Part shown: positions 19,431 through 23,433 of the stretch, in pieces | Layout of the letters: each line of letters begins with the position of its first letter | How positions within the stretch are numbered: position 1 is the stretch's first letter | IMG/VR virus record: IMGVR_UViG_3300027816_000081 | Span: 35,865-99,864 of that record | DNA: 64,000 nucleotides | DNA from: a virus | Direction: 5' to 3' (one strand) | Program-made: the position numbers and the translations under genes | Notes under the pieces: model-generated | Databases searched by the model: none | What the model saw: the letters and a program-made list of their open reading frames with translations, nothing else | What the model was told of the DNA's origin: nothing

Positions 19431-19459
19431 ACTATAACATAAGAATATTAGATTGTCAA
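19431..19459 (-). promoter_or_regulatory. Sigma70-like promoter TTGACA-N17-TATAGT
   Basis: Near-consensus; ATG 6 nt after the -10 box. Confidence 0.85.
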
Positions 19460-19462
19460 GCC

Positions 19463-20248
19463 TTATCCTTGAATCCAAGTTAGTGGTTGTGAATAATCCT
19501 GATACTTACGTAGATCGTCAATCAATCTTTCTTGCTCGGCTTTAGATTCAGCCTTCATAGCAGAACCATTCAAACTTGTGCCGCCGCCTGGGCCTGCAAT
19601 AGTTCCAAACTTTTCACGAGCTTCACCGATGATGCCCTTCAGAACAGCAAGAGTATAATCACCAATCCAAACACCTGCACCAGGATCCTGAATAAGTTCA
19701 ATTTCAGGACGCTGGATATCAGCCCAGATAAGAATGCGTTCACCTGAACCCTTGAAGTCACGAACCACTTTCAGTAGTTTGGTTACTGGGTTAAACGTGT
19801 AAGTTACATAACCACCAAACATACGTGCTGCAAGTTCAACATAACCGGCATAGAAGTCGTATGTAGCCATACCGCCTGTATAGTTATAGTTCAACAGGTA
19901 AGTGTTCAGAATGGCACTAGAGAACGGATCAAACGCAGTAGAGCTAGGTCCAGTTTCAAGACCTACTGTTCTACGGAATAATGCACGAACGTTGATAAAC
20001 TCTTCTGGCAGTGTGTACTCATACACGTTCTTCTCAACACGCATAAGGGTATAACTTTCAATCGTTGCGTTCTGCGCTCTTTGACGATAAAGCTTTACTG
20101 CATAGTTGTATGCAGCTTCGTAATGGTCTGGATCAAGTTCAAGATCAATGATATCGCCGCCCAAACGTAAACGAAGGTTCTCAAAGAGACCTTCCTTAAG
20201 CTGTGTTAGGTCGTAGTTAGTTGGTGTTGCTAGTGGGTCTGCTGCCAT
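19463..20248 (-). CDS. gp13: Neck/head-tail adaptor protein (gp13-like)
   Basis: LRLG...IDLEL, W...YTLA..K..IGEAREKF..I.GPGG..SLNG; late promoter. Confidence 0.8.
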   Translation of the reverse strand: MAADPLATPTNYDLTQLKEGLFENLRLRLGGDIIDLELDPDHYEAAYNYAVKLYRQRAQNATIESYTLMRVEKNVYEYTLPEEFINVRALFRRTVGLETGPSSTAFDPFSSAILNTYLLNYNYTGGMATYDFYAGYVELAARMFGGYVTYTFNPVTKLLKVVRDFKGSGERILIWADIQRPEIELIQDPGAGVWIGDYTLAVLKGIIGEAREKFGTIAGPGGGTSLNGSAMKAESKAEQERLIDDLRKYQDYSQPLTWIQG

Positions 20249-20311
20249 AATCGTTTCCTGTTAAAGTTATTTATCAGGAAACGTCATGACCTTTATTCTC
20301 TTTTAGGGTTA

Positions 20312-20551
20312 CTAAAGCTTAAAAGCTTCCTTCTCCTTAGTCTGCACACAGTTGACCACATCCTGAACAGTGTATAGATTTTCCGCTTCATCGTCGGTAA
20401 TGGAAATATTGAACGTTTCTTCAAGCGTCATTACTAATTCAATAACGTCAAGATCGTCGCCGCCCAAATCATCTACTAGGTGGTCCTGATCGCTGACTAG
20501 ATCAACCCCGAAGTGTTCAGCAACAACTTTTGAAATTACAGGGCAACTCAT
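20312..20551 (-). CDS. Acyl carrier protein homologue lacking the phosphopantetheine serine
   Basis: DDLGGDDLDVIELVMTLEETFNISITDDEAE..TVQD aligns to ACP [20 protein letters not shown]; Ser position is GAT (Asp). Confidence 0.85.
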   Translation of the reverse strand: MSCPVISKVVAEHFGVDLVSDQDHLVDDLGGDDLDVIELVMTLEETFNISITDDEAENLYTVQDVVNCVQTKEKEAFKL

Positions 20552-20964
20552 TATAGATCGCCCTCTTTGCGGTTTTCGCTGTAGTGAGCATCAAACTTAC
20601 CACCCGGATAGCGTGACTGTAGCTTGTCTACGTTTTCAGCAAGCACTTCATTAGGGTCAAGTCCGAGTGCGTTACAAGCATTAGCCCAGTACCAAGCAAT
20701 GTCGCCCAGTTCACGCTTCATATGGAAGATGTTGTCCTCATTGAGAGGTTTGCCCTGGAAGAGGATCTTCTTAACGATTTCTTCAAACTCGCCACCTTCA
20801 CTGCCGAGTCCAGTGCTTGCTGTCATTAGTAACGCAATATTGACGTTACTAGAAGCATCAAGCTCCTTAAGGCGTTCAATGAGGGCAGCTAGGTCCTTAC
20901 TCTGATCACTGCATACAGTGAGGACGAAGTCTGCGTACTTGTTTAGATCAATTTGGGTTGTCAT
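20551..20964 (-). CDS. MazG-like all-alpha NTP pyrophosphohydrolase
   Basis: GLGSEGGEFEEIVKK, ELGDIAWY, N..KL..RYP. Confidence 0.88.
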   Translation of the reverse strand: MTTQIDLNKYADFVLTVCSDQSKDLAALIERLKELDASSNVNIALLMTASTGLGSEGGEFEEIVKKILFQGKPLNEDNIFHMKRELGDIAWYWANACNALGLDPNEVLAENVDKLQSRYPGGKFDAHYSENRKEGDL

Positions 20965-20975
20965 ATATTTTCCTT

Positions 20976-22136
20976 TTAGAATGCCTTAAGAATGATCATA
21001 TCAGCGTTGAAGCGACCATTAGGTACAGCCTCAACAGCCTTGATCTCCTTGAAATACTTACGAGCAGCAGGCTTACTACCCATCAGTGCCTTAATCTGTT
21101 CAACGGGCTTGCGAAGCGTCTTAACACCCGATTCCTTCTTGTCAAAGCCAATCACAGTGTTACCCTTAACCATCAGGCACTTGCTATAATCGTCTGCGAC
21201 ATAGTGATGCATCTTGCGCTTCTTAGTGTCATAGACCCAAGCTTCGGTGCTCTCATGAAGCTTAACGGGGCTTAGACCAGTCAATTCAAGCTTGAGTGCA
21301 TCATCCTTGAACGACTTGCAGTGCTTAAGCTTAGCAACGACACGCTCGACCGGAACAGCCTTCTTAGCACGGGGCTTCTTCACAGTCTTCTTGAGTGCGA
21401 TGTATCCATTCAGTTCTGCAACGATTTCTTCAATCAGCTTGATAGCATAGCGCATTTGCAGCTTGCCAATGTTAGAGTATGCTTCGTTAAGCTGTTCATC
21501 TTTGCCTGCCTGGGCTTCACGAAATTCATCAAGAAGATGGCCCCAACGCTTAATCGCAGCAGCGATATGCTGGGGAAGAACGTTGCGCTTTTCAAGAGCA
21601 GACATTGCACGACGGTTGAGATTGAAGTCCTTAGGATACTTAGCGTCAATGAATTCGTCCCAAATCAGTTCAATGTCGCTAAGGGCCTCGTCAGCCTTTT
21701 CACGCATTACTTCCTGAATGTTGACGACCTTTTTGGGCTTTTCTTCGCCGTCAGTTTCTTCCTTCTTAGCCTTGAGTTCTGCACCTTCGGCAGCAAGACC
21801 TTCAACCCACTTCACAATGCCAGTCTTGTAGTTGTCAGGGATAATGTCAGGATTGACTTCAAGCAAATGTGCAGTGGTAGCCCAATGACTATGCATATCA
21901 ACCTTCCAGTCGGGAAGACGATTGATCTTAGTCAAGTAGTCCTTAGGGAAATTCTTCTTGATGTATTCCTTGACCTTAGTACCGCAATCCTTGCGCTCAA
22001 GATCATAGTGGACAAAGAACCTTGCCTTTTCCCAATTGTCTGTAGGCACCAAGCTAAAACGGTTAACGCCACGACGAGGGGCACGGACAGTCTTCTTAGA
22101 AGCTTTAGCTTTAATGAGGGCGGGGCGACGAGCCAT
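20976..22136 (-). CDS. Hypothetical protein (386 aa), early operon leader
   Basis: Long ORF with AGGAGA SD and consensus promoter. Confidence 0.8.
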   Translation of the reverse strand: MARRPALIKAKASKKTVRAPRRGVNRFSLVPTDNWEKARFFVHYDLERKDCGTKVKEYIKKNFPKDYLTKINRLPDWKVDMHSHWATTAHLLEVNPDIIPDNYKTGIVKWVEGLAAEGAELKAKKEETDGEEKPKKVVNIQEVMREKADEALSDIELIWDEFIDAKYPKDFNLNRRAMSALEKRNVLPQHIAAAIKRWGHLLDEFREAQAGKDEQLNEAYSNIGKLQMRYAIKLIEEIVAELNGYIALKKTVKKPRAKKAVPVERVVAKLKHCKSFKDDALKLELTGLSPVKLHESTEAWVYDTKKRKMHHYVADDYSKCLMVKGNTVIGFDKKESGVKTLRKPVEQIKALMGSKPAARKYFKEIKAVEAVPNGRFNADMIILKAF

Positions 22137-22167: not shown

Positions 22168-22196
22168 ACTATACAATAGCCATAGGTAATTGTCAA
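22168..22196 (-). promoter_or_regulatory. Sigma70-like promoter TTGACA-N17-TATAGT
   Basis: Consensus match in intergenic gap. Confidence 0.85.
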
Positions 22197-22995: not shown

Positions 22996-23433
22996 TTAAT
23001 GAACTATTTTTCTTGCTGAATTCTTTTGGTTGGAAAAATCGTTGTTCATTACTGACTTTTTACCATGGCAGAGTTTACAAATGGTGTCTACGTTCTCCGG
23101 AACATTATTGAAATGGTCTCCGTCAAGATGCTCTAAATCCAATGCATTGAGCATGTCTAGATTTTTCCACGACTTTGATGGTACGGGGCATTTCCAACCC
23201 AGCCGGCCATCTGCGTTTTCACAGTATTCTTTTTTGTGAATCGTAATGCCCGCCATCGCCGGGCCAAAAAACCCAGTCGTTCTAGCTTTATAGCAAGTTC
23301 CGCATTCTGATTTGATAGACCAATTTTTCCAATCTCTAACCATCACCGGCCGAATGCATCCAGGATTGATACAAGTGGGCAGAGAATAACCTTCGCTAAA
23401 GAATTTTTCCTTCATTTGCGGGCCTAGTTTCAT
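22996..23433 (-). CDS. HNH endonuclease-like protein
   Basis: LDLEHLDGDHFNNVPENVDTICKLCHGKK; own promoter TTGACA-N17-TACAAG (23468-23496). Confidence 0.82.
   Translation of the reverse strand: MKLGPQMKEKFFSEGYSLPTCINPGCIRPVMVRDWKNWSIKSECGTCYKARTTGFFGPAMAGITIHKKEYCENADGRLGWKCPVPSKSWKNLDMLNALDLEHLDGDHFNNVPENVDTICKLCHGKKSVMNNDFSNQKNSARKIVH

Follow-up and report, generated by a model that had tools for sequence, protein, structure and literature searches.

The window analysed here, meaning the whole stretch of 64,000 nucleotides, is part of an IMG/VR viral record of 99,864 bp with a CheckV completeness of 29%. The tail sheath of this virus is most similar (46-47%) to those of the jumbo myoviruses PA5oct, Atu_ph07 and Phosso, and contigs related to it are as long as 333,115 bp (92% complete) or, in one with terminal repeats, 360,683 bp (100% complete). 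On the minus strand, genes for a 386-aa protein, a MazG-like pyrophosphatase, an acyl carrier protein (ACP)-like protein, a head-tail adaptor, a dNMP kinase and the tail sheath follow one another in this order, with tail and virion genes surrounding the block that holds the ACP-like gene. The 386-aa protein (20976-22136, minus strand; phrog_11903, function not assigned) is encoded by the first gene of a three-gene cassette, the second being the 137-aa MazG-like protein (20551-20964, minus strand), a core gene of the lineage. The head-tail adaptor gene (19463-20248, minus strand; phrog_211) forms a conserved downstream boundary to the slot in which the ACP-like gene lies. In deposited phage records, the closest homologues of the MazG protein are cyanomyovirus MazG pyrophosphatases and a protein from a marine single-cell virus (58-59% identity), which hints that the lineage is aquatic in origin.

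The ACP-like ORF was found where the initial annotation had placed it, at 20312-20551 on the minus strand, with an ATG start and 79 codons, the stop being included in these coordinates. Its 79-aa product has a pI of 4.05, with 19 acidic and 4 basic residues. A direct read of the sequence also returned the motif DLGGDDLDVIELVM and the codons GGC GGC GAC GAT CTT GAC exactly as reported. Codon 33, GAT (20453-20455, minus strand), encodes Asp33, which occupies the alignment position of the Ser that bears phosphopantetheine (Ser36 of E. coli), and in an AlphaFold2 model this residue opens helix II, the ACP recognition helix (residues 33-47; 20411-20455, minus strand). The MazG stop codon overlaps the ATG of the ACP-like gene by 1 nt (TAATG), and a Shine-Dalgarno-like GAGGG (20561-20565, minus strand) lies 9 nt 5' of this ATG, within the end of the MazG gene.

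About 30 nt upstream of the 386-aa gene there is a sigma70-type promoter-like sequence, TTGACA-17-TATAGT (22168-22196, minus strand; 11/12), which occurs at the same position in 15 of the 16 diverged relatives checked. This positional conservation supports a real host-type promoter, and hence suggests early or middle expression. The description of the locus as an early operon is supported indirectly by a three-gene cassette behind a conserved sigma70-like site, while its timing is suggested by a match to the promoter consensus only. Another strong sigma70-like sequence (TTGACA-17-TATAGT with a TG extension; 19431-19459, minus strand) falls within the 3' end of the adaptor gene and immediately precedes the start of the dNMP kinase gene. 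A Cys-rich ORF of 145 aa (22996-23433, minus strand), which lies upstream of the cassette at a distance of two genes, gives weak HNH/homing-endonuclease matches (PADLOC ZorE/HEase models, E ~4e-5); beyond this HNH-like match, PADLOC assigned neither the ACP-like gene nor MazG nor any neighbouring gene to a defence family.

Between the stop codon of the ACP-like gene and the adaptor ATG lies a hairpin (20252-20283, minus strand) with a 9-bp stem, CGTTTCCTG/CAGGAAACG, and a loop beginning ATAAATAA. Its 3' arm holds the Shine-Dalgarno sequence and ATG of the adaptor gene, and the outer stem shows compensatory changes among relatives. The hairpin is conserved irrespective of the cargo beside it, delimits the cargo slot on its downstream side and has no repeat of its motif elsewhere in the 64-kb window. 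We rejected an intrinsic terminator because there is no T-run, because conservation is independent of cargo and because the structure overlaps the adaptor Shine-Dalgarno sequence and ATG. It may instead be a late-promoter-like or translational control element; if it were a late promoter, the cassette would be set apart from the late adaptor gene.

The ACP-like protein scores 41.1 bits with the Pfam PP-binding model (PF00550; cut-off 20.8) and matches PHROG 5934, 'acyl carrier protein', with an E value of 2e-17. Within NCBIfam, the subfamily model NF002148 is reached by a marginal 71.2 bits (cut-off 71) and the equivalog TIGR00517 is narrowly missed (65.4 bits, cut-off 70.45). As these best NCBIfam matches are AcpP models of fatty acid synthase, the protein derives from AcpP and not from a polyketide or peptidyl carrier. 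Its identity to solved AcpPs is 40-47%, and in phmmer alignments with PDB chains Asp33 aligns with the Ser of GADSLD, the single indel being a loop I that is two residues shorter in the phage protein. The AlphaFold2 model, made with 40 family sequences as input, has a pLDDT of 87.6 and places the four ACP helices at residues 4-14, 33-47, 53-57 and 62-77. The top 50 Foldseek matches to this model are ACPs throughout (TM 0.72-0.83), led by AcpPs at a TM of about 0.8 and an rmsd of 0.7-1.2 A; among them is E. coli AcpP bound to LpxD, FabZ, FabH, FabD, BioH, MukBEF and NFS1-ISD11. The assertion that helix II and the downstream motifs are intact agreed with the PDB alignment, with the model and with a family alignment (A1) of 40 sequences, comprising the 79-aa protein and 39 database matches.

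Some 50 relatives of this protein form one phage-only group, and in none of them is there a Ser at the phosphopantetheine column. A word-indexed search of 5.8 billion proteins yielded 39 matches, of which the 36 closest (45-99% identity) all lack the Ser and the three most distant are canonical ACPs with DSLD. Further family members recovered by viral-contig searches were Ser-less without exception. When 1.84 billion cluster representatives were searched with phmmer, the nearest single-domain ones had Ala, Asp, Pro, Glu or Asn at the site, and matches below about 50% identity were ordinary DSLD ACPs. Close homologues that keep Ser, which the initial annotation had said would tell against its reading, therefore numbered zero. 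The homologue alignment proposed for examining the conservation of Asp gave a divided answer: the absence of Ser is conserved but Asp itself is not, Ala being the majority residue alongside Asp, Gln and Leu. Ala (GCA, GCT or GCC) is present in about two-thirds of the Ser-less clan, Asp (GAT) or Gln (CAA) in the subclade of the phage gene and Leu (CTA) in one member. This variability indicates that no specific chemistry is selected at the Ser column.

A quick maximum-likelihood tree, built on few columns and with weak support overall, separated 50 Ser-less rows from 40 Ser-bearing rows and 6 scattered Ser-less ones across a branch with an SH-aLRT of 92; it is compatible with a single ancestral loss of Ser without proving it. 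For a census of viral ACPs, a DNA pattern encoding DLGxDxLDxxELV, in which the critical residue was left open, was run against viral contigs and matched at least 119 times. Among the matches listed, Ser was kept in 93 of 99 distinct viral ACP-like ORFs and missing in six (6%), two of which are members of the present family. Ser loss is unusual among viral ACPs in this census sample and universal in the family, a contrast far beyond chance (Ser in 0 of about 50 clan members versus 93 of 99 viral ACPs among the matches listed). In independent Ser-less lineages, Asp or Glu often takes the place of the Ser.

A scan of 185,579 species genomes detected no close relative of the family; it gave only matches of 42-58% identity in Planctomycetota and Omnitrophota MAGs, none of them family members. 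Among cultured phages, megablast of the 4-kb region found no match, and tblastn of the protein found only two weak matches, one of which is a Ser-bearing ACP. The ESM Atlas returned generic ACP clusters only. A 62-aa protein from a 36-kb contig (P0006) is identical to the 79-aa protein except for the loss of 17 residues that run from the end of helix I through loop I as far as the initial G of GGDD; this variant may be either a deletion allele or an artefact of assembly or gene calling.

The ACP-like gene is under purifying selection. For the less diverged (unsaturated) pairs of family genes, dN/dS is 0.20-0.28, and comparison of the 79-aa gene with its relatives gives a pN of 0.24-0.36 and a pS of 0.75-0.89, values at which synonymous sites are saturated. 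Six residues are invariant in alignment A1 (D32, L34, D35, E38, E44 and V62) and thirteen more are at least 90% conserved (D28, L29, I37, L39, V40, M41, L43, E45, F47, I51, D53, E55 and T61). With an offset of +3, the equivalent positions in E. coli AcpP include D35, L37, D38, E41, L42-V43-M44, E47, E48, F50, I54, D56 and T64. The acidic residues D35, D38, E41, E47 and E48 of AcpP touch basic patches on partner enzymes. The L42/V43/M44 segment in the middle of helix II is required in E. coli ACP for binding of SpoT and of fatty-acid enzymes (PMC3340395). Conservation of helix II is not in itself proof of docking, because its residues also stabilize the fold.

Automatic annotation would label this product 'acyl carrier protein', as would suit a carrier with a non-canonical attachment; alternatively, the altered site might reflect a decaying ACP gene or a sequencing error. 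We regard this group of explanations as extremely improbable. A Ser is found neither at the site nor beside it in about 50 relatives from independent samples, and no PPTase (PF01648) was found in the 99.9-kb record. The family-wide absence of Ser, together with a dN/dS of 0.20-0.28, largely rules out sequencing error and decay. Cys68 was considered as a substitute thiol and rejected, because Ile, Thr, Met or Val occupies this position in part of the family, which marks it as a core position. Searches for a second carrier domain in the 99.9-kb record and for fab genes near the ACP-like gene found none. As the defining Ser of AcpP is absent, the protein should not be filed as a carrier, despite the name that pipelines give it. 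The non-loadable AcpP derivative of the initial annotation is consistent with the fold, the register of Asp33, the absence of Ser throughout the family and the purifying selection. Judged from its sequence, then, the protein appears to be an obligately cofactor-free, phage-specific derivative of AcpP, the carrier of type II fatty acid synthesis, and it is quite likely a non-carrier that acts by binding.

The gene had also been described as coupled to MazG. We surveyed 80 viral loci (L024-L103) with a MazG 61-92% identical to that of the phage, 65 of which also contain the adaptor gene; the slot compared is equivalent to the gap at 20249-20311 of the window. This slot is empty in 19 of the 65 loci (gap of at most 70 nt, with 53-63 nt observed), holds one unrelated small ORF (membrane-like or coiled-coil) in 17, the ACP-like gene in 18 (four with extra ORFs) and larger inserts, including CxxC zinc-ribbon ORFs and a 192-aa ORF, in 11, counts that are inflated by near-duplicate contigs and describe a pattern rather than independent events. 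The ACP-like gene is directly 3' of MazG in all 18 of these loci; the exception is L005, where a 62-aa ORF intervenes. In L071, an extra ORF of 314 aa beside the ACP-like gene has weak homing-endonuclease-like matches. Co-occurrence of MazG and the ACP-like gene is not conserved and the stop/start overlap is not specific to the pair. Because most relatives with MazG are without the gene and other cargo uses the same overlap, the ACP-like gene is better seen as optional cargo of a hypervariable slot than as an obligate MazG partner. The claimed coupling stands as far as the 1-nt overlap and the GAGGG are concerned, but a specific functional tie does not fit with 47 of 65 related slots that lack the gene. 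A new result of this analysis is that the coupling appears, from gene order, to be positional and not functional.

These observations bear on an explanation in which the ACP-like protein serves the phage MazG (or the 386-aa protein) as dedicated partner or regulatory subunit, kept at a fixed ratio by translational coupling so that the two jointly tune nucleotide or alarmone pools. Such a partnership would account for a gene placed directly downstream with a 1-nt overlap, both in this record and in the 18 related loci (L005 excepted), but it sits poorly with slots lacking the gene on backbones whose MazG proteins are about 90% identical (L030 compared with L031 shows such backbones carrying different cargo), with unrelated cargo ORFs that begin on the same MazG stop (L025, L033, L070 and L080) and with two MazG-bearing (near-)complete relatives (333 and 361 kb) that have no PP-binding domain anywhere. 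Distant Ser-less viral ACPs also occur in other contexts, next to a VWA protein or to a radical-SAM/SPASM enzyme with a methyltransferase and a glycosyltransferase. A dedicated partnership is, on this evidence, decidedly improbable. In one such distant locus (L007:3279-6321), a Ser-less viral ACP with GADDLD is flanked by genes for an FkbM-type methyltransferase and a radical-SAM/SPASM enzyme, and a gene for a GT61 glycosyltransferase comes next.

Variable accessory slots behind early promoters are the usual home of counter-defence genes, and the slot described here, behind its early-type promoter, is of this kind. Together with the strongly acidic composition of the protein, this would suit a general polyanionic decoy of the Ocr or gp5.9 type, soaking up basic or nucleic-acid-binding proteins, for which the ACP scaffold would be merely a stable acidic fold unrelated to AcpP clients. 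However, the AcpP pattern of helices II and III is retained position by position, at 40-47% identity, rather than simply an excess of acidic residues; a decoy of this type is unlikely. The target preferred by the initial annotation was the stringent response, through binding of SpoT in concert with MazG. MazG does adjoin the ACP-like gene, and the phage protein keeps the LVM of helix II through which E. coli ACP contacts SpoT (PMC3340395). A review (PMC3896788, citing Battesti and Bouveret 2006) nevertheless reports that SpoT does not bind apo-ACP. In the same screen, binding to SpoT was abolished in an A34P mutant and in a D35G-P55Q double mutant, and Gly takes the place of A34 in the phage protein. 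In addition, most MazG-bearing relatives are missing the ACP-like gene. We therefore consider SpoT a very unlikely target.

The reading that we prefer, tentatively and at a little under an even chance, is that of a permanently apo ACP mimic occupying host ACP docking sites. The protein would be made early or in mid-infection by the host RNA polymerase and would act purely by binding, with helix II docking onto the basic patches by which proteins of the host (or phage) receive AcpP. Never being loadable, it would remain a competitive occupant of ACP sites. The likeliest targets would be clients that accept apo-ACP, namely PlsB-type glycerol-3-phosphate acyltransferase, other lipid-synthesis enzymes, AcpS and MukB-type SMC proteins. 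The ranking of lipid-synthesis enzymes, AcpS and MukB-type proteins above SpoT follows the E. coli literature on apo-tolerant clients. Apo-AcpP raises the ATPase activity of MukB as much as holo-AcpP does (PMC8602292), and glycerol-3-phosphate acyltransferase is more strongly inhibited by apo- than by holo-ACP, with an arrest of growth, in the account of Keating et al. 1995 given in PMC3896788. Host lipid synthesis could be shut off or re-routed as a result, or the effect could be some other form of takeover or counter-defence. Against the mimic reading, PADLOC gave no defence-family match for the gene, and no anti-defence family is known to be ACP-like. We speculate that an Asp or Glu in place of the Ser may mimic the phosphate of the cofactor; such mimicry cannot be essential in this family because Ala is the commonest residue. 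Any effect would be conditional, since most relatives do without the gene.

An acidic residue at the Ser column was also observed in the 105-aa 'acyl carrier protein' of the Ackermannviridae, conserved across genera and present in 271 phage records that include CBA120 (orf142; NC_016570.1, 78276-78587, our L233:2507-2818), Vi01, PhaxI, LIMEstone1, AG3 and Klebsiella and Salmonella phages (see also L013-L020 and L234-L238). This protein scores 30.7 bits with the PP-binding model, above threshold. In all six representatives, drawn from four named genera and one unclassified Aglimvirinae phage, the Ser column is occupied by Asp or Glu. The Ackermannviridae-type protein of CRW-SP2 reads QCDDLD at the Ser-site motif. 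Our literature search found no paper noting or explaining Ser-less phage ACPs, and the Ackermannviridae papers found merely list the gene.

Here we have described a family-wide, selection-backed loss of the phosphopantetheine Ser in a jumbo-phage lineage, and an Asp or Glu at the same column of the Ackermannviridae 'acyl carrier protein'; both are new observations. Phage genes annotated as 'acyl carrier protein' are routinely filed as auxiliary metabolic genes. Since neither the Ser-less family nor the Ackermannviridae protein is likely to be a carrier, annotations of this kind probably mislead. It is possible, if still doubtful, that Ser-less ACPs, including this jumbo-phage family and the Ackermannviridae protein, constitute a recurrent and convergent class of phage effectors that imitate AcpP to block or hijack its clients (lipid synthesis, MukB-type SMC proteins, AcpS), with an acidic residue at the Ser site as a phosphate mimic in many lineages. 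AcpP is among the most connected hub proteins of bacteria. If the idea is correct, a look-alike of this hub that is encoded by phages, maintained by selection and always apo would inhibit ACP-dependent processes in a simple, natural way, and could be used to probe the importance of individual ACP interactions in infected cells. As a culturable model, the homologue from Ackermannviridae opens the idea to experiments in phages of E. coli and Salmonella that are already in culture.

Comparison with bacterial AcpP (PF00550, TIGR00517; for example E. coli AcpP, PDB 1L0H and 1T8K) shows the same four-helix fold, with a TM of about 0.8 and an rmsd of about 1 A, a similar size and pI, an acidic helix II with ELVM and equivalents of F50, I54, D56 and T64-V65. 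The phage family differs in the replacement of Ser36 (Asp in the 79-aa protein; Ala, Gln or Leu in relatives), in a loop I shorter by two residues, in a score below the TIGR00517 cut-off, in its restriction to phages and in a neighbourhood free of fab genes and PPTase. The closest functional analogy is with E. coli apo-ACP and the non-modifiable ACP(S36T), which are likewise without the prosthetic group; these are laboratory states or mutants, whereas in the phage family the apo state appears from the sequences to be genetically fixed in a diverged family that is under selection. Other phage orphan ACPs (PHROG 5934 and 4154; Brevundimonas phage Bajun) are also small stand-alone genes, but the Bajun ACP has GADSLD and Ser is kept in 93 of 99 viral ACPs among the matches listed, in contrast to its complete absence from the Ser-less family; most viral ACPs may, because they keep the Ser, be true carriers. 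The Ackermannviridae protein shares the motif DLGGD[D/E]LD..IE.VM with the 79-aa protein at 30-34% identity, but is 105 aa long with an N-terminal extension of about 45 residues, and in every matched record it follows a VWA protein of about 750 aa, whereas the 79-aa protein follows MazG.
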